This document shows positions 3,067 to 47,851 of a DNA stretch of 64,000 nucleotides, piece after piece. The translations under genes were made by a program, and so were the position numbers. The DNA is from an uncultured Gammaproteobacteria bacterium (GTDB lineage: Bacteria; Patescibacteriota; Microgenomatia; UBA8517). The notes under the pieces were generated by a model. It did not search any database. It saw only the letters and a program-made list of their open reading frames with translations, and had not been told where the DNA came from. Position 1 is the stretch's first letter, and every line of letters begins with the position of its first letter. The stretch spans positions 138,358 to 202,357 of the forward strand of contig CAZWNZ010000001.1 of the NCBI GenBank assembly GCA_964635715.1. The letters are read 5' to 3'.

Positions 3067-3672
3067 ATGCCAGACATTTTTGTTTCTCCGGAGAAGATAG
3101 AGGAAAAGCCAGTTAAGGAAAATATTGAACATGGTCATAGACGTAGACGCCTTTCATCTTATTATCTTCACCCAAAACACATTAATTTTGAAACAAAAGA
3201 CCAGGACGAGGAAATAATACTGATGCTTAGACAGCATCCGATTATTAATTTAAAATGGATTGCAATTACCATAGTGCTTCTTTTGTGTTTGTCCTTTGTG
3301 GAAAAGACCAATTTCTTTTCTCTTCTACCTGAAGGTTATCCATTAATTATTAAGATGGTATGGTATCTGGTTACTTTTATTTATGCGGTCGAAGGTTTTT
3401 TCCATTGGTATTTTAATGTTTATTTCATTACAAAAAGAAGGGTTATCGATGTAGATTTCTTTAATATTATCAGTAAGAGAGTTACGGATGCTGAAATAGA
3501 CAAGATTCAGGATGTCACTTACACAAATAGCGGTCCTATAGGAACAATATTTAATTATGGAGAAATTTCAATTCAAACATCCGGAGAATCACGGGAAATT
3601 GCTTTTGAAAATGTGCCACATCCCGACAAAGCCGCGGACATTTTGGATGATTTGAGAGCAATGTATAAATAA
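3067..3672 (+). CDS. Membrane protein with bacterial PH (bPH_2/YdbS-like) domain
   Basis: Two TM helices are followed by a beta-rich domain with a YdbS-like pattern (VIDVDFFNIISKRV...ISIQTSGESREIAF). Confidence 0.45.
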   Translation: MPDIFVSPEKIEEKPVKENIEHGHRRRRLSSYYLHPKHINFETKDQDEEIILMLRQHPIINLKWIAITIVLLLCLSFVEKTNFFSLLPEGYPLIIKMVWYLVTFIYAVEGFFHWYFNVYFITKRRVIDVDFFNIISKRVTDAEIDKIQDVTYTNSGPIGTIFNYGEISIQTSGESREIAFENVPHPDKAADILDDLRAMYK

Positions 3673-6091: not shown

Positions 6092-6185
6092 AAGACTATG
6101 GCTCTACTTCGCTAGAGCTTCGAAGAGCACTTCTTCGATAGGAGTGCTGCGCGCTTCGAAACTCCAACAAGGTTGGAGTGAAGAA

Positions 6186-6550
6186 GTGGAGACGGCGGGA
6201 ATCGAACCCGCGTCCGAAAATACTATAAACAATACTTCTACAAGCTTATTAGATCTTTTTTTATTTTCTTTTAATTTAAGTCGATCTACAAACAATCAAA
6301 AGTAAGGCTAATTTAGTTTCAGCTACTAGCTATCAGCCGTTAGCTATTAGTTATATCCCGGATTGGTTTACACCCTTTTGATCCGGCCGAGATTCAGATC
6401 TAAGGACGCAACTTAAGCGTACGCTACTGCGTAGTTAGGTTGGGCTTGGAATAAATTCCTAGCTTTTATTTTTTAATCCCTTTTGACAAGTGATGATCAA
6501 ACTTGGCTTGCTGTATTGTAAAGAGCTCTCCGTCGAAACCGATCGTCCCC
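6186..6550 (-). ncRNA. ssrA: tmRNA (SsrA)
   Basis: The reverse strand reads 5' GGGGACGATCGGTTTCGACGGAG... and ends ...GGACGCGGGTTCGATTCCCGCCGTCTCCAC. The acceptor stem is GGGGACG/CGUCUCC with a G3:U pair. An internal frame reads ...AQPNYAVAYA followed by a stop, which fits a tag peptide. smpB is adjacent. Confidence 0.8.
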
Positions 6551-6618
6551 AAAAAATATTACCAATTTCAAATTCCAAATAAATACAAATTTCCAATTGG
6601 GCATTGGTATTTATTGGA

Positions 6619-7065
6619 TTATTTGTACTTATTGGTACTTATTTTCAACTCTCTTTCAATATCACGATTGATATCGTGGCGTCTAATACTTTCCTTCTTT
6701 TGGAACTTGCGCTTGCCTTTACCAAGCTCAAGATAAATCTTAATTAGACGGCCTTTATTATACACTCTAAGAGGAACGATCTGCAATTTTTTCTGCTTCA
6801 TTTTTGTGATTAGTGATAATATTTCAGATCGGTGTAAAAGGAGTTTTCTCATGCGTGTCGAGTCATACTTTTGGATGCCCTGTGCAGGTATATTTGCATT
6901 AATCAGGTAGGCTTCGTCTTTCAAAATTCTAATTGCTGCCTGAGAAATATCAGCTCTTCCTTCACGCACAGATTTGGCCTCGGCTCCTAAAAGAGAAACG
7001 CCTGCTTCAACACCCTCACCTGTAAGTTCGTATTCAAATTTAGCCTTTTTGTTAACTATTTTCAT
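6619..7065 (-). CDS. smpB: SsrA-binding protein SmpB
   Basis: MKIVNKKAKFEYELTGEGVEAGVSLLGAEAKSVREGRADIS...RMRKLLLHRSEI matches SmpB, and the gene sits next to the tmRNA. Confidence 0.9.
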   Translation of the reverse strand: MKIVNKKAKFEYELTGEGVEAGVSLLGAEAKSVREGRADISQAAIRILKDEAYLINANIPAQGIQKYDSTRMRKLLLHRSEILSLITKMKQKKLQIVPLRVYNKGRLIKIYLELGKGKRKFQKKESIRRHDINRDIERELKISTNKYK

Positions 7066-17430: not shown

Positions 17431-17769
17431 ATGCCCAATAAAACCCGAACAAAAGATACTAGAACCTATCGTGATAGGGCGCATTATTTAGTTCTTGCAG
17501 TTGCCAAAAGAAGACGAAAGTTAAAATCCATGGCGGTGGAATTAAAAGGGGGTAAATGCCAAATTTGTGGATACAATAAATATGTTGGGGCGTTGTCTTT
17601 TCATCATTTAGATGAAAAAAGTAAATCATTTGATTTATCAACAAAAGGTTTAACAAGAAGTTGGGAAAAAACAAAAGAAGAAGTCAATAAATGTATATTG
17701 GTTTGTGAAAATTGTCACAGGGAAATCCATGGGGGATTAATAAAGCTTCCAGTTAAGCTCAATGTTTGA
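17431..17769 (+). CDS. HNH endonuclease
   Basis: CQICGYNKYVGALSFHHLDEK...LVCENCHREIH is an HNH/zinc-finger nuclease signature. Confidence 0.7.
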   Translation: MPNKTRTKDTRTYRDRAHYLVLAVAKRRRKLKSMAVELKGGKCQICGYNKYVGALSFHHLDEKSKSFDLSTKGLTRSWEKTKEEVNKCILVCENCHREIHGGLIKLPVKLNV

Positions 17770-17792: not shown

Positions 17793-18069
17793 TCCCCGGT
17801 AGCTCAGCGGTAGAGCGGATTCCTGTGATTTCTTAGCAGCTCTTAAAGGAAACTTTAAGATGAAAACTGGGAGAATTGCGTGAAGCCCCTGTCATTTTGA
17901 CGAGGTAACCCGCAGCCGAGCCCTAATAAAAATTAGGGAAGGTTCAGAAACTATGTACCCAGACACCTCGTTTATTCTGTAAACAAGTGCAAGATATAGT
18001 TCCGCGTCCCACAGAAATGTGGGGGAGCGAGTAAGAATAAGGTCGCTGGTCCGAATCCAGCCCGGGGAG
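17793..18069 (+). tRNA. tRNA-Asn(GUU) interrupted by a 205-nt intron in the anticodon loop
   Basis: 5' exon TCCCCGG TA GCTCAGCGGTAGAGC G GATTC CTGT (17793-17826). 3' exon TAA GAATA AGGTC GCTGGTCCGAATCCAGC CCGGGGA G (18032-18069). Spliced anticodon loop is CUGUUAA. U1-A72 and discriminator G are typical for bacterial tRNA-Asn. Confidence 0.7.
17827..18031 (+). ncRNA. Group I-like self-splicing intron inside tRNA-Asn
   Basis: Exon ends in U and intron ends in G. Exon CUGU can pair with intron GCAG (P1 with a U-G wobble at the splice site). P2 hairpin CTCTTAAAG-GAAA-CTTTAAGA. P3 pairing GACGAGGT/ACCTCGT. GCCGAGCC and GAAGGU core-like segments. Terminal hairpin CCCACA-GAAA-TGTGGG. Size matches the small IC3-type tRNA introns. 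Confidence 0.6.
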
Positions 18070-18106
18070 CACTTCGGCAAGCTCAGTGCAAGCACAATTT
18101 TTGACA

Positions 18107-18403
18107 ATGAACAAGGACTGGTATGTTTATATGCTTCTTTGTGATCAGAAAACTTTTTATGTTGGGATTACTCCAGATTTATTAGAAAGAATGAGAAAAC
18201 ATGGGGACAAGCTGTCGTTTTTTACTAAAAAGTTTTCTGATCTGAAACTGGTTTATTGCGAAAAATATCGAAGCAAATTTGATGTTGCAAAAAGAGAAAA
18301 ACAAATAAAAGGTTGGAGTAGAGCAAAGAAGCAAAAGTTGATAAATGGAGAATTAGGTGTTAATACTTGTACTGAGATTGCCAAAGCTCTTTTGGGCGGA
18401 TGA
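18107..18403 (+). CDS. GIY-YIG nuclease-domain protein (YhbQ/UPF0213-like)
   Basis: MNKDWYVYMLLCDQKTFYVGITPDLLERMRKH. Starts 38 nt after the tRNA-Asn 3' end. Confidence 0.75.
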   Translation: MNKDWYVYMLLCDQKTFYVGITPDLLERMRKHGDKLSFFTKKFSDLKLVYCEKYRSKFDVAKREKQIKGWSRAKKQKLINGELGVNTCTEIAKALLGG

Positions 18404-38603: not shown

Positions 38604-39719
38604 ATGTCAAAGATAAAAGTTGGAATTAATGGTTTTGGTAGAATTGGGCGTCTAGCGCTCAGAATCGGAGTTCTTAAACATCTCGATGAAATTGAGTTTG
38701 CTGCAATCAACACTTCTGGCTCAATGGATACTTCATCATGGGCTCATTTGGTGAATTATGACACGATGTATCGCACCTTTCAGTATAAAGTTCAAGCAAA
38801 GGATATTAGAGACCCGAAAGAGATAACTGACGAAGAACCTCAAATAGGAGAGATATTAATTTCCGAGAGAAATGTAAAGGTTCCGGTTCTTGCACAAAGA
38901 GATCCTGCCAAAATTCCCTGGGGAAAATACGGTGTTGATGTGGTAATTGAGGCAACAGGCATTTTTACTAAAAGAGAAGATGCGGTTAAACATGCAAGAG
39001 GGGGAGCAAAAAGAATAGTTTTGTCCGCTCCAGCAAAAGGAGAGAATGTCGGAACTTATGTAGTTGGAGTTAAAGAAGTCGAGGGTTCTGCAGAAGTTAT
39101 TTCTAATGCCAGTTGTACAACTAATTGTGTCGCTCCGGTCATGGCGGTGCTTGAATCAGTGTTTGGGATTGAAAAAGCGGCAATGACAACGGTACACGCA
39201 TATACAGACGACCAAAATTTACAGGATGGATCGCACAAAGATTTACGACGTGCACGCGCCGCCGGACAAAATATTGTTCCCACGTCCACCGGAGCAGCTA
39301 TTGCTACAACAGAAACAATACCATCTCTTAAAGGAGTGTTTGATGGGAGGTCTTTGAGGGTTCCGGTTGCAACAGGATCCATTACAGATTTTGCGGTAAT
39401 TCTAAAGAGAAATACGACAGTGGAGGAAGTAAACGATGCTTTTAGACAGGCATCTAAAAATTCCATATATAAGGGAATATTGGCAGTTTCTGAGGAAGAA
39501 TTAGTATCAAGCGATATTATAGGAAGAAGCGAGAGTTCCATAGTTGACTTACCTCTTACTCAAGTAATTGGTGGAAATCTTGTCAAGGTTTTTGCCTGGT
39601 ATGACAATGAATGGGGATATGCCAATAGGCTTATTGAACAGGTAATTAGAGTTGGCAGGAATCTGGAAAGTAAAACCGTGCCAACAGATCCAATATCTTT
39701 ATCATTTAAAACAGTGTAA
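38604..39719 (+). CDS. gap: Glyceraldehyde-3-phosphate dehydrogenase
   Basis: INGFGRIGR, SNASCTTNC and WYDNEWGY motifs. Confidence 0.9.
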   Translation: MSKIKVGINGFGRIGRLALRIGVLKHLDEIEFAAINTSGSMDTSSWAHLVNYDTMYRTFQYKVQAKDIRDPKEITDEEPQIGEILISERNVKVPVLAQRDPAKIPWGKYGVDVVIEATGIFTKREDAVKHARGGAKRIVLSAPAKGENVGTYVVGVKEVEGSAEVISNASCTTNCVAPVMAVLESVFGIEKAAMTTVHAYTDDQNLQDGSHKDLRRARAAGQNIVPTSTGAAIATTETIPSLKGVFDGRSLRVPVATGSITDFAVILKRNTTVEEVNDAFRQASKNSIYKGILAVSEEELVSSDIIGRSESSIVDLPLTQVIGGNLVKVFAWYDNEWGYANRLIEQVIRVGRNLESKTVPTDPISLSFKTV

Positions 39720-39720
39720 T

Positions 39721-39806
39721 TATATGAAATTCTCTCAGGAGAAATAGTGCGATTTAAAAATCGTAGACGATTCGGAGAATCTCCAAGGATGAACTTCATA
39801 TAACAT
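39721..39806 (+). promoter_or_regulatory. Conserved ~65-nt leader element, copy 1 (with 18-nt insertion), upstream of the LOG-family gene
   Basis: AAATTCTCTCAGGAGAAAT...GCGATT[TAAAAATCGTAGACGATT]CGGAGAATCTCCAAGGATGAACTTCATATAA. GGAGA/UCUCC stem, AAGGA SD and a 4-codon uORF MNFI (39788-39802). A second copy is at 46782-46847. Confidence 0.4.
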
Positions 39807-39822
39807 TTGTTTTACAAACATT

Positions 39823-40464
39823 ATGGAAGAAGCAAAAAAATACTCCGGTGTTAGATGTATTAAAAATATTGCTTTTTTTGGCGATGCGAATATTTCCGAA
39901 ACTGACGAAGCATATAAAGACGCATTTGAGGTGGCAGAAGCTTTAGGACAAAAGGAATATGTCATTGTTGATGGGGGAGGTCCCGGAGTAATGGAAGCAG
40001 CAACAAGTGGTGCAAGAAAGGGAGGAGGAAAAACAATTTCGATAACTTTCGATCCGGTAGGAGCTACCGGATATGAAGGGCGCTATATCAAAAATGTTAC
40101 CGATACGGAAGTGGTGACCACAAATTATATAGAACGCATGTTCAAGCTTCTGGAATATGGAGATGTCTTTATTATTTTTAAAGGTGGCAGCGGAACAGTT
40201 TCGGAATTCGGCACGGCCTGGGTTTTGGCAAAATTATATTTTGGTCACCACAAACCGATTATTCTTTATGGCGATTTTTGGGCAGAGATTTTGGATGTTT
40301 TCAGAAAAAATATGAATATAGACAGTACTGAAATGAGCGTTTTTGAGATTTGTACAACTCGCGATGAGGTTTTGAATGCTATTGAAAGATTTGAAAAAAA
40401 GATAAATGACAGGGGCTGCTTATTGAGCAATGATGACTCGATTGATGGAGCTTTTAAAGTTTAA
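39823..40464 (+). CDS. LOG-family protein (cytokinin riboside 5'-monophosphate phosphoribohydrolase-like; TIGR00730)
   Basis: GGGPGVMEAA and KGGSGTVSE motifs. Confidence 0.75.
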   Translation: MEEAKKYSGVRCIKNIAFFGDANISETDEAYKDAFEVAEALGQKEYVIVDGGGPGVMEAATSGARKGGGKTISITFDPVGATGYEGRYIKNVTDTEVVTTNYIERMFKLLEYGDVFIIFKGGSGTVSEFGTAWVLAKLYFGHHKPIILYGDFWAEILDVFRKNMNIDSTEMSVFEICTTRDEVLNAIERFEKKINDRGCLLSNDDSIDGAFKV

Positions 40465-40497
40465 CTAGATTCTGGAATTTAGAATCTAGAATCTAGG
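40464..40497. repeat. CTAG-AWTC-TAG palindromic repeat cluster (copy B)
   Basis: TAACTAGATTCTGGAATTTAGAATCTAGAATCTAGG upstream of tktA. Confidence 0.45.
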
Positions 40498-40498
40498 T

Positions 40499-41275
40499 AT
40501 GAAAAATACACAAGAAGGCCTAAAAAACATATCGCTACAAGTAAGACGGGACATATTGGAGATGATTTATAAAGCCGGGAGCGGACATCCCGGAGGATCT
40601 CTTTCCGCAGTTGAAATTTTGGTCGCCCTGTATTTTGAGGTGTTGGGGGAGGAAGATAAATTTTTTCTTTCAAATGGTCATATCTGCCCCGCTTTATATT
40701 CAGTTTTTATTGAAAAAGGATTATTGTCTCGCGATTCCTTATCTCAATACACATCTCTCAACTCTTCTTTACAAGGACATCCTGAAAAAGGAAAATTGCC
40801 CGAGATTGAAAACACATCGGGGTCTTTGGGGATGGGTTTGGGACAAGCGGCAGGGTTTGCCGTTGTAGAAAAAGACTCAACTGTTTATTGCATGACCAGC
40901 GATGGCGAGCATGATGAAGGAAGTCATTGGGAGGCTGTTAATTTTGCTGCAAAATATCATCTCGGAAACCTAATCCAAATAGTCGATAAAAACGGGATTC
41001 AAATTGAAGGAACGGTGGAGGAAATAATGCCCCTTGGAAACCTAAAAGAGAAATATGAGGCTAGTGATTGGAACGTCATCGAAATTGACGGACATAATTT
41101 TGAGGAAATTATCGATGCTTTTGAAAAAGCCAAGGAAAACGGCGGTAAACCGACTGTCATCCTGGCCAAAACTATTTTTGGCAAAGGCATTTCTTTTATG
41201 GAGGGCAATCCTAATTGGCATGCAAAAGCACCCAACAAAGAGGAATTTGAAAAAGCAATGTCGGAGCTAAAATAA
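40499..41275 (+). CDS. tktA: Transketolase, N-terminal subunit (split form)
   Basis: GSGHPGGSLSAVEILVALYF thiamine-diphosphate-binding motif. Confidence 0.85.
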   Translation: MKNTQEGLKNISLQVRRDILEMIYKAGSGHPGGSLSAVEILVALYFEVLGEEDKFFLSNGHICPALYSVFIEKGLLSRDSLSQYTSLNSSLQGHPEKGKLPEIENTSGSLGMGLGQAAGFAVVEKDSTVYCMTSDGEHDEGSHWEAVNFAAKYHLGNLIQIVDKNGIQIEGTVEEIMPLGNLKEKYEASDWNVIEIDGHNFEEIIDAFEKAKENGGKPTVILAKTIFGKGISFMEGNPNWHAKAPNKEEFEKAMSELK

Positions 41276-41290
41276 ATACCAATAATACCA

Positions 41291-42253
41291 ATGTCACCAA
41301 TAAATACAAATTCCAAATTAAAAAGTATGAGGGATGGATTTGGAGAAGCACTGGTTGAGCTTGGTGAGAAAAATCCCGACGTTGTTGTATTGACGGCAGA
41401 TTTGGCTCAGTCAACAAAAGTTGCTGATTTTGCTGATAAATTTCCAGATCGATTTTTCCAGGTCGGAGTGGCAGAGCAATCGCTTGTCACCGTTGCCATG
41501 GGAATGGCCGCCGCAGGCAAAATTCCTTTTACAACTTCCTATGCGGTTTTTTCTCCGGGAAGAACCCTTGAATTTATAAAAGTTGCAGCATTGAGTAATC
41601 TACCGATAAAAATCATCGGAGCCCATGCAGGGTTCGGGGCTTCAATGTATGGGGCAACACACCAGAGTCTGGAAGATATAGCTTTGATGAGAACAATTCC
41701 CAATATGGTTGTTGAAGTTCCCGCCGACTTTGAAGAGGCTAAAAAGGCCACATTCGCATTAGCTGAAAATGGAAAACCAAGCTATTTGAGACTGGCCAGG
41801 CAGGAATCAGAAGTTTTATCTAAAGGAAATTTTGAAACAGGTAAGGTAGTTACCTTAAGGGAAGGAAAGGATCCTCAAGTTGCAATAATCGGAGCAGGGC
41901 CAATTCTGGCGGAAGGATTAAAAGCTGCGGAGGAATTATCTGATATTGGAATTGAAACAATGGTAATTAATTGCCACACAGTGAAACCCATTGACGATAT
42001 TGCAATCACAAATGCGGCTAGGATTTGCGGCGGCATTGTAACGATTGAAGAGCATCAGATAATGGGAGGATTAGGGAGTGCAATCGCTGAAGTTGTGGTT
42101 CAGGGCCATCAGGTTCCGATGGAATTTGTGGGAGTGAAAGATTCCTTCGGAGAATCTGCTAAAACATATCAGGAACTTTGGAAAAAGTTTGGATTAACAA
42201 AAGAAAATATTATAGAAGCAGTCAAAAAAGTAATCCTTCGTAAAAATTCCTAG
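41291..42253 (+). CDS. tktB: Transketolase, C-terminal subunit (split form)
   Basis: Pyrimidine-binding and C-terminal domains: FFQVGVAEQSLV and EDIALMRTIPNM. Confidence 0.85.
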   Translation: MSPINTNSKLKSMRDGFGEALVELGEKNPDVVVLTADLAQSTKVADFADKFPDRFFQVGVAEQSLVTVAMGMAAAGKIPFTTSYAVFSPGRTLEFIKVAALSNLPIKIIGAHAGFGASMYGATHQSLEDIALMRTIPNMVVEVPADFEEAKKATFALAENGKPSYLRLARQESEVLSKGNFETGKVVTLREGKDPQVAIIGAGPILAEGLKAAEELSDIGIETMVINCHTVKPIDDIAITNAARICGGIVTIEEHQIMGGLGSAIAEVVVQGHQVPMEFVGVKDSFGESAKTYQELWKKFGLTKENIIEAVKKVILRKNS

Positions 42254-43305
42254 TTACTTACCCAAATTTTCTTCAACTCGGGATTGATTAAACCTTCTGG
42301 GGTTTCGGATACCCATTCTTTAAAAGTTTGACTTACTTCGATCTCAACTTGCCATTTAGAATCAACCTTTTTTCCTAAAAAATGATATAAGTCAGGACCT
42401 CCTTCACCTGTGGCATATATTGTAATTATGCCAAAAGCCCAATTATCGGAGGTTTTAGTATCCTGTTGAGAAACACCATATTCTGTTGTGGGTGTTCTAC
42501 CCAAACGACTTATTAGCGCAGACTTGGCTGCTGAATTTAAACTGTCGAAATCTAAATCCTGGTTTTGATTAGTAAACTTAAAAGTGGAAAGGATTTGGTT
42601 CAGCAAATTTTTATCGGGTATGCGAAACCTCATATCGATAATAAAACCGGAATCCGGTACTAAAATTTCAGTAACAGAATTGGATCTACTATCGTATGGT
42701 TTTGTTAATTCATATACAAACTTATAAGCAGGTTTGCCGTTGAAGGTAATATTATCCTGAAAAATAATTTTTGGTTCCTCGTCTGCTAAACCAGCTGTTG
42801 AACCCATGTAATAATCGACAGCGTATCGCTTCATTTCCTCCAGTGTTTTATTTGTATTTGTGATTACTGTGACGTTGTCGTCTACGTGGTTGGTAATTTT
42901 GGAATTTTCACCCACAGATATATAGCTACTTTGATCAGTTATTACTGTCCAGTTTTTAGGGTATTGGAACTCCAAATTTTTGTTTTGCGAAACATATTTT
43001 TTCCAATCTGCAGTTGGATCGGCTGTGACTTGAGGGGTGGGGGAAGGAGACCTAGTTGCTACAGGTTCTTTCGCGAAATAACGTTGGTATACAAAATATC
43101 CACCAGTCCCCAAAATCGCAAAAGCCAAAATAATTAATAAAACCGGTATTAACTTACTTTTTGTTACTGGAAGTTCAGATAAAACAGGTTGAGACGTTAC
43201 CGGTTGAATGAGGGGAGTATTAGCTATACCTGTCGGAATTTCGAGCGGTGGAACCTGATTTTGAACAGGTTCTTGAATTGGGGCTTGGTTAATTTGGTTT
43301 CCCAC
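42250..43305 (-). CDS. Membrane-anchored extracellular protein, paralog 1 (Pro/Gln-rich N-terminus, TM, PT linker, TADPTADWK motif)
   Basis: PTPQVTADPTADWKKY. Paralogous to 43309-44349. Confidence 0.45.
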   Translation of the reverse strand: MGNQINQAPIQEPVQNQVPPLEIPTGIANTPLIQPVTSQPVLSELPVTKSKLIPVLLIILAFAILGTGGYFVYQRYFAKEPVATRSPSPTPQVTADPTADWKKYVSQNKNLEFQYPKNWTVITDQSSYISVGENSKITNHVDDNVTVITNTNKTLEEMKRYAVDYYMGSTAGLADEEPKIIFQDNITFNGKPAYKFVYELTKPYDSRSNSVTEILVPDSGFIIDMRFRIPDKNLLNQILSTFKFTNQNQDLDFDSLNSAAKSALISRLGRTPTTEYGVSQQDTKTSDNWAFGIITIYATGEGGPDLYHFLGKKVDSKWQVEIEVSQTFKEWVSETPEGLINPELKKIWVSN

Positions 43306-43308
43306 TTT

Positions 43309-44349
43309 TTAAAATGTACAAACAACTGCAATATTAGGACCACAAATTTCTCCTGGCAATGCATGTCTGCAAGTATTTGATTGTGCATCAAACTTTCCTT
43401 GATAAGTTTGACATAGGGTCTGCAATTTTTGAGTTAAAGTTGAATTGCCGGAAGAATCTTGACACTCTTTATAATCATCATCCCAATGTTTTGATGAACC
43501 AAATATACCTATGCATGCAGTTTTAGCAGACTCTAAGGTTGACGAGGTTGTTGTCGAACCAAACTTAAAAGTGGAAAGAATTTGATTTATAGCATCAATA
43601 TTGCTAAGTGTAATTTGGAATATGTTATTTTCATTTTCAAACCAGAGGTATTTATATTCCATTAGCGGATACAAAGATTCTGCACTTCCATCTTCAACGT
43701 AATTTCCCTTGATGGTGTAGGTATAGGCCTTTGTTCCTAAAAAAACTGTTTCTGTAAACTTTTCAATCACTTGGTTGTCTTCAATTTCGGACTTAGCTAT
43801 TTCAGAAAGTTGTTCTTTATTGCTGTTCGCAGGCAACTTATAGGTGGAAACCTTGTTAAAATGTCTTTGAGCCTGTGTAGTTAAACTTTCGAGTGTTTTG
43901 TCTGTAATACTAACCGCAATTCTTGGTTCCAATGTTGAATCTTGAGAGTCAGAATTATAAGCAACTATGTGTGATTCAATTTCAGGAGTATCACTACCAA
44001 AACCATTTTGGCCAACGCTGTAGTTTTCAGGATATTTAAAAGAGTAATTATATTTTGTATTTGTATATGTTTTCCAATCGGCTGTGGGATCAGCTGTAAC
44101 TACTGGTGTGGGGGAAGCCACAGCAATCGGTTTAACTGCAAAATACTTTTGGTATACCAAAAGACCTCCAATCCCAACTAATATTCCAACAACAAGAAAT
44201 ATGACCAAAATCAACCAATTATTTTTAGATTGTACAGGAATTGAAGGGGTAATAGGTTCAGTGGGTGGTGTGATTGGAGTATTTTGTGCAGGGACTTGAG
44301 GATCCATGTTTAGATTCTGAAGTTTATAATTTTGGATGTCAAGAAGCAA
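43309..44349 (-). CDS. Membrane-anchored extracellular protein, paralog 2
   Basis: PTPVVTADPTADWKTY. Cys-rich C-terminus: CIGIF...CQDSSGNSTLTQKLQTLCQTYQGKFDAQSNTCRHALPGEICGPNIAVVCTF. Confidence 0.45.
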   Translation of the reverse strand: MLLDIQNYKLQNLNMDPQVPAQNTPITPPTEPITPSIPVQSKNNWLILVIFLVVGILVGIGGLLVYQKYFAVKPIAVASPTPVVTADPTADWKTYTNTKYNYSFKYPENYSVGQNGFGSDTPEIESHIVAYNSDSQDSTLEPRIAVSITDKTLESLTTQAQRHFNKVSTYKLPANSNKEQLSEIAKSEIEDNQVIEKFTETVFLGTKAYTYTIKGNYVEDGSAESLYPLMEYKYLWFENENNIFQITLSNIDAINQILSTFKFGSTTTSSTLESAKTACIGIFGSSKHWDDDYKECQDSSGNSTLTQKLQTLCQTYQGKFDAQSNTCRHALPGEICGPNIAVVCTF

Positions 44350-44752
44350 CCCCTTTAAAATCCGGACAGTTTTCTTGATACCAATTTATTGCCTCAGTTG
44401 AACACTCGGATTTTATATCAGTGCCTGGCATACAATCGACATATCCGTTTTCCGGACATGAATATTTTAAGGCTTTACCGACAGGAGAAGCTGAAGACGT
44501 AGCAATCGGAGACGGGGTGGCAATAATTACAATCGGCGTTGGGGAAGGAAGTGATTCGTATTGGGATAATTTATCTTTTAGCGATTGATTTTGGTTATAC
44601 AAAAAAATAATCATTCCAAGGGAGAGAATTACAAACAGAGCAACACAAATAATAGTTATAAAATTTCCGGAGGAATTTTTGTGACCATTTTTTGTCGGAA
44701 TTGTTTCGTTAACACCCTGATATATATGGTCCATATTTTTGAATTCTAGCAT
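44339..44752 (-). CDS. Membrane-anchored small extracellular Cys-containing protein
   Basis: TM, SPTPIVIIATPSP linker and six Cys in the C-terminal domain. Confidence 0.4.
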   Translation of the reverse strand: MLEFKNMDHIYQGVNETIPTKNGHKNSSGNFITIICVALFVILSLGMIIFLYNQNQSLKDKLSQYESLPSPTPIVIIATPSPIATSSASPVGKALKYSCPENGYVDCMPGTDIKSECSTEAINWYQENCPDFKGVAS

Positions 44753-44811
44753 AATCCGCTTTACTCATGAATAGTTTGGTTTTAAACTGATAGATAATAT
44801 TTAACAATACT

Positions 44812-45789
44812 ATGAAAGAGACTATCCAAAAGTTATTGACTCAAGGTAAGGGAATACTTGCTGCCGACGAAAGCAATAAAACGATTAATAAAAGGTTTGA
44901 GTTTTTTGGAATCGAATCTACTCCCGAGTCTCGCAGAAAATACAGAGAAATGCTTTTTACTACACCGGGAATAGAAAATTATCTAAGTGGGGTTATTCTC
45001 TTTGAAGAAACGCTGGACCAGGAGATGCAGGGTAAGTTCCCTGTCCAGTTGCTTCAGGAAAAAGGAATTATCCCGGGTATTAAAGTTGACGGAGGGTTGG
45101 AGCCATTTAATGAAACTGAAGAACAAATTACTAAAGGACTTGAGGATTTAGAGGTGAGGATTAAAAAATATGCCGGTATGGGACTTAAGTTCACTAAATG
45201 GAGGGGAGTATTCAAAATAAACGATAAATATCCATCAGATGCGTTTTATGATGAAAATCTGAAAAGAATGGCTAAGTTCGCAAAAATTTCTCAAGATGTG
45301 GGCTTAGTACCGATTGTTGAGCCCGAGATTTTACTTGAAGGGAACCACACAACTACACGCTGTAGCGAAACAATAGATGAAACCTTAACAATTCTTTTTA
45401 AAAAGCTTGTTGAAATGAACGTTGATATCACGAAACTTCTTGTAAAAACAAGCATGGCTCTTCCCGGACCCGAATCCGGAGTTAAGGCCTTGCCTTTGGA
45501 AGTAGCTAATTCTACACTTAGGGCTTTAAGAAAATCAGTACCGGACGGAGTTCCCGGTATAGTTTTCCTTTCCGGCGGACAAACACCGGATGAGGCTACA
45601 AGTAATCTAAATGAAATAGTTAAGCTGAAAGAAGATGAATCCTGGGAAACATCCTTTTCTTTTGCAAGAGCATTACAGGAGGAAACAATGGCTGTATGGT
45701 GCGGAGAGGCCGAAAACATAGCCGATGCTCAAGAGGTATTCATTAGACGATTAGAAAAAGTCTCAAAAGCACGATATGGAAAACTTTAA
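44812..45789 (+). CDS. fba: Fructose-bisphosphate aldolase, class I
   Basis: GKGILAADESNKTINKRF and the Schiff-base lysine region. Confidence 0.8.
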   Translation: MKETIQKLLTQGKGILAADESNKTINKRFEFFGIESTPESRRKYREMLFTTPGIENYLSGVILFEETLDQEMQGKFPVQLLQEKGIIPGIKVDGGLEPFNETEEQITKGLEDLEVRIKKYAGMGLKFTKWRGVFKINDKYPSDAFYDENLKRMAKFAKISQDVGLVPIVEPEILLEGNHTTTRCSETIDETLTILFKKLVEMNVDITKLLVKTSMALPGPESGVKALPLEVANSTLRALRKSVPDGVPGIVFLSGGQTPDEATSNLNEIVKLKEDESWETSFSFARALQEETMAVWCGEAENIADAQEVFIRRLEKVSKARYGKL

Positions 45790-46777
45790 TCTGCTATCCA
45801 TCGGAGATGCAGGAATGGACGCCTTTATGACTCCGTTAGAAGGTGAAACTGTTTGTAAGTTGGACACTAAGGAGTGTTTGATATCTTTTTCCTATGGTGA
45901 CAAGATACCTGTAAAAAACTTGGAGTTTACAATCGGGGGAAATGCTGCCAATAATTCTATAGGCGCCAGACGTCTCGGAATTTCTACAGCAGTGGCTTTG
46001 ACTTTAGGGGATGATAGTGTCGGAGAAACGATAATTAAAAAACTAAAAGATGAAGGAGTGGATGTAACCTATGTTGTTCAACAGCCGTCAACGTCTTCAA
46101 ATTTTTCAACAATAATAAATTATTCTGGAGAGCGGACGATTTTTGTACACCATGCTCCAAGATCGTACGAATTTCCGGTCAATCTTCCGGCTGCACCTTG
46201 GGTTTACCTCACCAGTATGGGTGAAAGTTTTAGGCCATTTTATATGCACACAGTCGATTGGATAAAGAAGAATCCCCAAATTAAGCTCGTGTTTAACCCC
46301 GGAAGCTGGCAAATGCGCAGTAATTTTGAAGATATTCAGGACATAATGAGTTTAACTTATTTAATTTTTGTGAATAGGGAGGAAGCAGAAAAATTGACAA
46401 AGTTTGACGGCAGCAGCAAAGATAAAGAAAGAGATTTATTAATTGGCCTAAAAAATTTGGGTCCAAAAATTTGTGTCGTTACAGATGGAGAGAATGGAGC
46501 TTTTGCTTATGATTCGGTTAATGGTTTGTTTTTGAAAGTAGGAGCTTTTCCGATTGAAGCCTATGAAAGAACCGGGGCGGGGGATGCCTTTGGGGCCGGA
46601 GTTCTCTCTGCACTAATTTATGGAAAACCTCTTGCAGAAGCACTCCTTTGGGGTACATGCAATTCTGCTTCTGTAATTGGGTTTATAGGCTCACAAAAGG
46701 GACTTTTAAAACTTGAAGATCTTGATATGTGGCTAACCCGCGCCAAGACAAGTGGGATTAATGTTGTACAATTTTAG
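45776..46777 (+). CDS. PfkB-family carbohydrate kinase
   Basis: GGNAANNSIG and GAGDAFGAGVLSAL motifs. Confidence 0.75.
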   Translation: MENFNLLSIGDAGMDAFMTPLEGETVCKLDTKECLISFSYGDKIPVKNLEFTIGGNAANNSIGARRLGISTAVALTLGDDSVGETIIKKLKDEGVDVTYVVQQPSTSSNFSTIINYSGERTIFVHHAPRSYEFPVNLPAAPWVYLTSMGESFRPFYMHTVDWIKKNPQIKLVFNPGSWQMRSNFEDIQDIMSLTYLIFVNREEAEKLTKFDGSSKDKERDLLIGLKNLGPKICVVTDGENGAFAYDSVNGLFLKVGAFPIEAYERTGAGDAFGAGVLSALIYGKPLAEALLWGTCNSASVIGFIGSQKGLLKLEDLDMWLTRAKTSGINVVQF

Positions 46778-46781
46778 TGAT

Positions 46782-46847
46782 TATATAAAATTCTATCAGG
46801 AGAAATTAAGCGATTCAAAGAATCTCCAAGGATGAATTTTATATTAC
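46782..46847 (+). promoter_or_regulatory. Conserved ~65-nt leader element, copy 2, upstream of the 2-hydroxyacid dehydrogenase gene
   Basis: AAATTCTATCAGGAGAAATTAAGCGATTCAAAGAATCTCCAAGGATGAATTTTATATTAC. uORF MNFILLK at 46832-46855. Confidence 0.4.
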
Positions 46848-46864
46848 TTAAATAAATTTAACTT

Positions 46865-47851
46865 ATGAAAGTATTTGTAACCAGAAAGATACCAGGTGAG
46901 CATCTTGAAAAGCTTAAGGAAGCGGGGTTTGATATATCAGTTTCAGAGTTTAATCGTGTTTTGACAAACGAAGAACTTTTGGAAGGTATTAGAGGTACCG
47001 ACGCTATCTTGAGTCTTTTGACGGATAAGATCGACGGTGATGTAATGGATGCGGCAGGCCCAGGTTTAAAAATAATTTCAAACTATGCAGTAGGTTTTGA
47101 CAATATTGATGTGGATGCAGCAACTAAAAGGGGGATAGTTGTTACGAATACCCCCTCAGATGAGGTTAATGAAGCAGTGGCTGAGCACACATGGGCGCTT
47201 ATTCTAGCTCTTTCGAGGCGTATTGTTGAGGCTGATGAGGCAACCCGTCATGGAGCATATAAAGGTTGGGAGCCGGACATATTTTTGGGTATAAACTTGA
47301 TTGGCAAAACTTTGGGAATAATCGGAATGGGTAGAATAGGATCCATGGTTGCCAGAAGGGCGGCGGGTTACAAAATGAATGTGCTTTACAACAAACGCAA
47401 TCCGGATCCAGAAGCGGAAAAAGCTTTAGGAATTAAATTTGCTTCAGTAGACGAACTGCTGGCTCAGAGTGATTTTGTAACTCTCCATGTTCCACTTACT
47501 TCCGAAACATACCATATGATGAACAAGGATGCTTTTGCAAAAATGAAAAAAGGATCATATCTGGTCAATACCGCGCGGGGCCCGGTTGTCGATGAAAGAG
47601 CCTTAATCGAAGCGCTTGGCAATGCCCAAATTGCCGGAGCGGCTTTAGATGTTTTTGATAATGAACCGAATATTTCACCCGAACTTACGGGTAACCAAAG
47701 AGTCGTAACAACACCCCACATAGCCTCTGCTACATGGGAAGCCAGAAATAAAATGGGGCAGCAGGCTGTCTCTGCAATTATTGATATTTTTTCCGGTAAT
47801 AAACCTCAAAATATTGTTGACGAAAAAGTATGGCCTGCCCGCAGACGCTAA
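46865..47851 (+). CDS. D-isomer-specific 2-hydroxyacid dehydrogenase (glyoxylate/hydroxypyruvate reductase-like)
   Basis: GKTLGIIGMGRIGSMVARRA NAD-binding motif; catalytic Arg/Glu/His region. Confidence 0.8.
   Translation: MKVFVTRKIPGEHLEKLKEAGFDISVSEFNRVLTNEELLEGIRGTDAILSLLTDKIDGDVMDAAGPGLKIISNYAVGFDNIDVDAATKRGIVVTNTPSDEVNEAVAEHTWALILALSRRIVEADEATRHGAYKGWEPDIFLGINLIGKTLGIIGMGRIGSMVARRAAGYKMNVLYNKRNPDPEAEKALGIKFASVDELLAQSDFVTLHVPLTSETYHMMNKDAFAKMKKGSYLVNTARGPVVDERALIEALGNAQIAGAALDVFDNEPNISPELTGNQRVVTTPHIASATWEARNKMGQQAVSAIIDIFSGNKPQNIVDEKVWPARRR

Follow-up and report, generated by a model that had tools for sequence, protein, structure and literature searches.

Short non-coding sequences that recur almost unchanged before unrelated genes have been grouped as putative mobile promoters, a purely operational class that covers positions -150 to -50 and asks that stretches of 50 nt or more before non-homologous genes of one genome be 80% identical or better (Matus-Garcia, Nijveen and van Passel 2012; commentary PMC3575422). 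In this work, we describe a palindromic intergenic element that resembles these promoters and stands twice, before two unrelated genes, in a stretch of 64,000 nucleotides from an uncultured bacterium (GTDB lineage Patescibacteriota, Microgenomatia, UBA8517; assembly GCA_964635715.1, contig CAZWNZ010000001.1, positions 138,358 to 202,357 of the forward strand). This whole stretch, part of a 482-kb contig, is called the window throughout, and the homologues of its proteins are labelled Microgenomates. The likeness to putative mobile promoters extends to near-identical non-coding upstream sequence before unrelated genes, both within a genome and across taxa, to a pair identity of ~90%, to the lack of an Rfam or insertion sequence (IS) match, and to a debate common to both on whether selection or recent copying is the source of the identity. 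Unlike them, the element is a palindrome, has its place at about -100 to -15, and occurs in a single metabolic cluster of an apparently leaderless genome of the candidate phyla radiation (CPR), where its promoter is itself putative.

Correia elements and other repeats that resemble miniature inverted-repeat transposable elements (MITEs) reach copy numbers in the tens to hundreds, face either way and have defined target duplications. Like them, our element is short, ends in inverted repeats, lies beside genes, is polymorphic for presence or absence and could carry promoter boxes and form RNA hairpins, but it is found in 1-2 copies, in one orientation, with no consistent duplication and with flanks that appear to have been copied along. 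Repetitive extragenic palindromic (REP) sequences and REPINs likewise follow stop codons closely as imperfect palindromes that can form hairpins, but they measure ~20-40 nt; the element is 67-85 nt long, has no GTAG-type head, is very low in copy number, and no RAYT gene is found among the 57 open reading frames (ORFs) of the window. Leader-peptide attenuators of the erm/cat type also place a tiny ORF beside a hairpin upstream of a gene. In contrast to these, the hairpin described here sequesters no downstream Shine-Dalgarno (SD) sequence or start, the length of the mini-ORF varies, and SD sequences are rare in the host. Small pseudoknot or hairpin riboswitches are comparable in size, in position upstream of metabolic genes and in conserved loops; unlike them, the element has no family match and no significant covariation, is patchy among near-identical genomes, and is nearly totally identical instead of combining a conserved core with variable stems.

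An earlier note on this DNA had read the element as a translational attenuator, a ribosome-sensing leader peptide or a small riboswitch-like RNA. We place the element, as a new family, in the loosely bounded group of mobile promoters or MITE-like intergenic cassettes. Our preferred reading, to which we give a probability of roughly 45%, is that it may be a palindromic intergenic cassette that was propagated within and between a few Microgenomates genomes, before genes of sugar metabolism, and that acts in cis on the gene downstream. Very little is known about gene regulation in CPR/Patescibacteria, and the cassette is a compact, testable case of what would be regulatory DNA copied before different central-metabolism genes and exchanged between lineages, with natural filled and empty alleles at 94% identity.

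Two copies of a palindromic element in the window

Copy 1 is the long form (85 bp; 39720-39804, + strand; 82 bits) and occupies site A, between the GAPDH gene gap (38604-39719, +), whose stop codon it adjoins, and a LOG/SLOG-family gene (39823-40464, +). Copy 2 is the short form (68 bp; 46781-46848, +; 99.7 bits) and occupies site B, between a pfkB-family kinase gene (45776-46777, +) and a D-2-hydroxyacid dehydrogenase (2-HADH) gene (46865-47851, +). Both copies were where the earlier note had placed them, and align with an 18-nt insertion in copy 1, as it had described; the four gene identities hold by Pfam (Gp_dh, SLOG/Lysine_decarbox, PfkB and 2-Hacid_dh), and its central observation of a conserved non-coding element before unrelated genes was borne out. 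The alignable span of both copies runs from the upstream stop codon to ~20 nt 5' of the next ATG. The 18-mer AGAATCTCCAAGGATGAA occurs exactly twice in the window, against 0.11 occurrences expected even with three mismatches, and neither nhmmer nor a covariance model with its filters off found a third copy in these 64 kb.

Every copy is an imperfect palindrome that extends further than the earlier note had it, and in which 12-bp A+T-rich outer arms enclose an inner GATTC-NNN-GAATC; the palindrome segment of the element reads GATTCAAAGAATC, and the typical length is ~67 bp. In copy 1, the outer arms are TATATGAAATTC (39721-39732, +) and GAACTTCATATA (39791-39802, +), with one A.C mismatch and one G-C pair at positions where the copies at site B and at a third site, C, have A-T; the site A copy of a related contig, L051, also has G-C there. 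The arms of copy 2 are TATATAAAATTC (46782-46793, +) and GAATTTTATAT (46834-46844, +). The inner palindrome is GATTC-GGA-GAATC in copy 1 (39769-39781, +) and GATTC-AAA-GAATC in copy 2 (46812-46824, +), and its stem bases GATTC/GAATC are unchanged in all seven variants that we know. The 18-nt insertion, present in copy 1 only (39746-39763, +; CGATTT-AA-AAATCG), is a diverged duplicate of this inner palindrome. Outside the element the inner palindrome is not enriched. As a separate observation, the spacer between the LOG and transketolase genes (40465-40498) ends in a tandem TAGAATC TAGAATC right before the ATG, which resembles the element core AGAATCTC.

Identity beyond that of the flanking genes

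The site B spacer is identical in the window and in the related contig L033 (87/87), against 79-80% identity in the flanking genes and 51-53% at their third codon positions. The identical run of 116 nt that contains it (46754-46869, +) is the longest in 12 kb that are otherwise ~75-80% identical; the runner-up has 53 nt, and the other spacers of the two genomes are 14-79% identical. A similar picture was obtained with L013 (spacer 92%, flanks 65-68%, third codon positions 39-40%), and between L014 and L037 the element is 90% identical and the adjoining aldolase gene 80%. Between sites, copies diverge by 6-20%, the figure for paralogous copies being 13-20%, and the two from site A are ~20% apart. 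Because copies differ by up to 20%, many positions of the element must be free to vary. An identity of 87/87 at a genome divergence of ~20% therefore speaks for a recent common origin of the segment, through copying or exchange, and constraint alone is insufficient to account for it.

The same comparison bears on a rival explanation, namely a structured RNA of ancient origin that would regulate glycolysis and pentose-phosphate genes in cis, as a small riboswitch or protein-binding leader, and was repeatedly lost. Such an RNA fits the regulon-like distribution of the element, upstream of three genes of one pathway. However, an identity of 87/87, spacer included, between 80%-identical genomes cannot come from RNA constraint, as sister copies differ by 13-20%, and the element is dispensable in the closest relatives.

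Whole spacer units appear to have been copied between sites, judging from their flanks. The flanks of site C in L037, TAGGTA...AAACATCATG, are those of site A in L051, and the aldolase spacer of a 94%-identical relative is different; the right flank of copy 1, ATATAACATTTGTT, is found again at site C of L021. At site B, filled and empty forms differ by a clean 67-nt indel bordered by ATAAA. At sites A and C the flanks are replaced without a clean duplication, and no target-site duplication consistent across the three sites was found. A model in which TTATATAA is the duplicated target loosely fits sites B and C; it was rejected, as it fails at site A and leaves 9 extra nt at site B unaccounted for. 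The 57 window ORFs include neither a transposase nor CsrA, and no larger element sharing the ends of this one, nor any other match to the arms, was found in the window.

These features have also to be weighed as those of a selfish, non-autonomous palindromic repeat (MITE- or REP-like) without host function, whose arms would be ends recognised or folded in mobilisation and whose location at gene starts would merely mark tolerated insertion spots in a compact genome. The outer arms do resemble terminal inverted repeats of 12-14 bp, with the self-complementary 8-mer TTATATAA in each, and 12-bp terminal inverted arms, one mark of a MITE, are present in all copies; presence/absence polymorphism between 94%-identical genomes, an element identity far above that of the flanks, the end of the L014 contig at the element edge and the clean ATAAA-bordered 67-nt indel at site B point the same way. 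A selfish repeat accords less well with a count of only 1-2 copies in each genome region and with the lack of others in the 64 kb, or with three sites in one metabolic cluster that share one orientation and the same distance to the ATG; both matches from an unbiased metagenome scan also fall inside this cluster. Furthermore, neither target nor duplication is consistent, TTATATAA is missing where site A is empty, the flanks seem to have been copied along as far as the ATG, and the window is without a transposase or a larger element sharing the ends. We consider a selfish repeat unlikely; if the element were merely that, it would still be a rare small repeat family in CPR genomes.

Patchy distribution over three sites of one metabolic cluster

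Further copies came to light in related CPR genomes, giving seven distinct sequence variants (n = 7) at three sites: site A (gap>LOG), site B (pfkB>2-HADH) and site C, the divergent spacer before the gene of class I fructose-bisphosphate aldolase (FBA). All three sites lie within one syntenic glycolysis/pentose-phosphate cluster, which encodes TIM, RpiB, PGK, GAPDH, LOG, transketolase, FBA, PfkB and 2-HADH. The genes that follow the element are the LOG-like gene, the 2-HADH gene and the class I aldolase gene, and every copy points to the gene downstream and ends 11-20 nt 5' of its ATG. At site C the element stands in a divergent intergenic region without a co-directional upstream gene.

A scan with an exact pattern of 22 bases over 185,579 species genomes, one per species, returned 6 matches, all of them chance; the same scan of the metagenomes of the Joint Genome Institute (JGI) returned two real matches, L013 and L014, and 4 chance ones. 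Viral contigs, plasmids and phages gave no matches to the element. These large DNA scans demanded 22 exact bases, and the remaining related loci were mostly retrieved via genes of the cluster. In L013 the element occupies the pfkB>2-HADH junction, as copy 2 does, and L014 has it directly 5' of the class I aldolase gene, where the contig stops at the element edge. Among the contigs retrieved through orthologous proteins, L033-L035 are filled at site B and L037-L046 at the aldolase site. The L013 organism is also represented by a longer contig, L051/L052, where both gap>LOG and pfkB>2-HADH carry a copy. A covariance model found no further copies in 17 loci.

In the window, sites A and B are filled and site C (44753-44811, +) is empty, and the L051/L013 organism has the same occupancy; L033-L035 are filled at B, and L014 and L037-L046 at C. 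At the sites that could be examined, L008/L031, L018, L021-L030 and L047-L050 are empty. In the genome nearest to that of the window (gap at least 90% and 2-HADH 89% identical), the spacers measure 25 and 20 nt and lack the element, and in lineages that are 84% and 80% identical all three sites are empty. Site C is filled in L037 and empty in L047-L050, with L037 and L047 94% identical over 11 kb. The window and the L051 organism share their occupancy yet belong to different clades (2-HADH 67% identical), and relatives closer to the window genome, as well as those closer to the L051 organism, are empty. Such absence from the closest relatives would be unusual for a conserved leader.

Other variable features of the cluster are as follows. 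The gap>LOG spacer of L018, which is without the element, contains AATTTAGAGATTCATAGAAT (3179-3211), which matches the element centre at ~16/21 positions and may be a decayed relic. Small ORFs resembling 23S_rRNA_IVP/bAvd are present in relatives (L007 3514-3876, L008 1037-1399, L018 4689-5033) and absent from the window; they stand either between TIM and RpiB or between the halves of transketolase. They are a second presence/absence polymorphism of the cluster. A variable block between transketolase and aldolase adjoins site C (window 42250-44752, - strand; L037 7582-9881 vs L047 8543-9949). It holds PsbP-like, Gmad2-like and hypothetical genes, and in genomes otherwise 92-94% identical its gene content differs or its identity is only 84-88%.

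A putative promoter in an apparently largely leaderless genome

SD-like motifs, loosely defined, precede only 17 of 67 window ORFs. A box matching TATAAT at 5 or 6 positions is present before 31 of 62 window ORFs, with a modal gap of 6 nt to the ATG, and the distance from the end of a TAnAAT box to the ATG ranges from 0 to 27 nt across window ORFs. From these counts, the mRNAs of the organism appear to be mostly leaderless or to have very short leaders, even inside operon-like clusters. The invariant block of the element, CGATTCAAAGAATCTCYAAGGATG, consists of a -10-like AAGAAT or GAGAAT, then 8 nt, then an ATG, and this box-N8-ATG layout is kept in 7/7 variants. The candidate boxes, proposed from sequence and genome layout, are GAGAAT in copy 1 (39775-39780, +) and AAGAAT in copy 2 (46818-46823, +), each 8 nt 5' of the internal ATG. 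The layout of the block looks similar to that of the leaderless genes of this genome.

The reading that we prefer, a propagated promoter-proximal cassette, would work as follows. The cassette would act in cis on the right-hand gene as a portable module, with GATTC-NNN-GAATC, which overlaps the -10-like box, as a candidate operator. The conserved AAGGATG is where transcripts would begin; leaderless translation of the 4-codon MNFI ORF would come first, and re-initiation 10-20 nt further on would bring ribosomes to the real start. As to the 12-bp outer arms, they may be a trace of cassette copying through a hairpin, or may form an RNA hairpin in read-through transcripts. We regard this specific promoter and mini-ORF mechanism as doubtful. 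Because the site A and site B copies of L051 are 90.3% identical over 62 nt before unrelated genes, the cassette belongs in the operational class of putative mobile promoters. Between the two window copies, the 18-nt indel divides the match into one part of 44 nt with 84% identity and one of 37 nt with 86%.

Several points weigh against the cassette reading. No canonical -35 box is found at 17 nt 5' of the -10-like box, which itself begins with A or G, not T, and a simple sigma-70 scan gave no consistent + strand promoter. The two covarying pairs in the outer arms, described below, hint at a hairpin function that a promoter model does not need. Only seven distinct copies are known, from a survey that covers mainly the cluster, most loci having been retrieved via its genes, and the unbiased DNA scans needed 22 exact bases. 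Neither a consistent target-site duplication nor a transposase among the 57 window ORFs was found that would point to a mechanism of copying. The sole result of the sigma-70 scan, an antisense TTGAAT-17-TAGAAT in copy 2, was set aside: its first -10 base varies, and it faces away from the associated gene. If the cassette does drive or tune expression, it would show how core metabolism is rewired in reduced, largely leaderless genomes and would provide a native promoter/leader part for CPR genetics.

RNA structure and the leader peptide

The translational attenuator put forward in the earlier note has an upstream AGGAGA pairing with UCUCC beside an SD-like AAGGA, and translation of the MNFI ORF controlling the downstream gene. 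All of these motifs are indeed in both window copies; in copy 1, GGAGA lies at 39738-39742 (+) and its partner TCTCC at 39780-39784. The pairing itself found no support, as it is broken or weakened in 2/7 variants: L037 has GCAAA/UCUCU, which breaks the stem, and the site A copy of L051 has GGAAA/UCUCU, which weakens it. No compensatory change accompanies either, the GGAGA:UCUCC stem shows no double changes in the seven-sequence alignment, and no part of the element varies more than the GGAGA 5' strand. The note was right on the presence of AAGGA and the ATG, but AAGGA overlaps the ATG, and the spacing is too short for an SD sequence.

The mini-ORF reads ATG AAC TTC ATA TAA (MNFI*) in copy 1 (39789-39803, +) and MNFILLK* in copy 2 (46832-46855, +), and the MNFI start is kept in 7/7 variants. 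Its stop is not conserved: the lengths are 4, 7 or 16 codons, the longest belonging to the site A copy of L051, which has no MNFI stop. Both substitutions of copy 1 within MNFI are synonymous, which would suit a translated leader, and arm pairing accounts for them equally well. Downstream of the copies, the genes offer no SD for sequestration, and the hairpin stops 11-20 nt short of their starts. With no Rfam match in addition, the attenuator and riboswitch-like readings of the earlier note found no support, and translational attenuation in particular is very improbable.

A longer ORF through the element, LYKILSGEIKRFKESPRMNFI, was attractive for several changes at third codon positions and for an 18-nt indel that is in frame. 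It was rejected, having no start codon, an in-frame stop at the left edge and a 1-nt deletion in the site A copy of L051. The open upstream frame of L014 is merely the aldolase spacer, and N-terminally extended aldolases showed no read-through of the element.

For the cis-regulatory RNA introduced above, a consensus hairpin with large conserved internal loops can be drawn, and its outer arms hold two covarying pairs, A-U<>G-C and U-A<>C-G, among the seven related sequences. This covariation is not significant, since the observed value was reached in 16/500 shuffles when counted by cells (4 cells) and in 262/500 when counted by pairs, and the alifold covariation term was +0.21. The fold z-scores are modest (-2.2 to -2.7 for the + strand, -3.6 to -4.1 for the - strand), and of all segments variation is greatest in one strand of the inner helix. 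A possible relic of the element, GATTCATAGAAT, in the site A spacer of L018 would favour an old RNA. The Rfam scan gave no family at the gathering score, and at E<=10 only chance matches (a miRNA, a snoRNA and Spd-sr07). The motif AAGGAUGA is unchanged across variants, and the GGA upstream of it is missing in L037. This motif may resemble the CsrA binding consensus; no CsrA gene is among the window ORFs. Judged by eye, the cre, Cra, IHF, attC and K-turn consensus sequences are poor matches to the element. Taken with the identity and dispensability arguments, a repeatedly lost cis-regulatory RNA is rather improbable. It is more improbable again that the element is an ancient regulatory RNA or operator for CPR central carbon metabolism which spreads as a ready-made module between genes and genomes. 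Such a module could, for example, sense a glycolytic or nucleotide-derived metabolite or bind a global regulator, and, if this is true, Patescibacteria would offer a rare case of a portable sensor that wires a glycolysis/pentose-phosphate regulon.

The earlier note had also considered a role in the 3' untranslated region, and the element might then be the 3' end of the upstream gene, as a terminator or an mRNA-stabilising hairpin. Its placement agrees with this at sites A and B, where it starts at the upstream stop codon or 1-4 nt past it. The argument is weakened by site C, with its lack of a co-directional upstream gene, and orientation and spacing follow the downstream ATG. A scan for intrinsic terminators (a G+C-rich stem followed by a T-run) found no sites. 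A 3'-end role is hardly credible.

Other features of the window

A group I intron (Rfam RF00028, 17817-18024) interrupts a tRNA-like gene at 17795-18075 (+). The acceptor strands of this gene are TCCCCGG.../...CCGGGGA, and a CCT at the anticodon loop suggests Arg(CCU); ARAGORN made no call. An HNH ORF (17431-17769) lies upstream and a GIY-YIG endonuclease ORF (18086-18403) downstream. At 6184-7065 (-), a tmRNA gene (146 bits) directly adjoins smpB in an ordinary arrangement.

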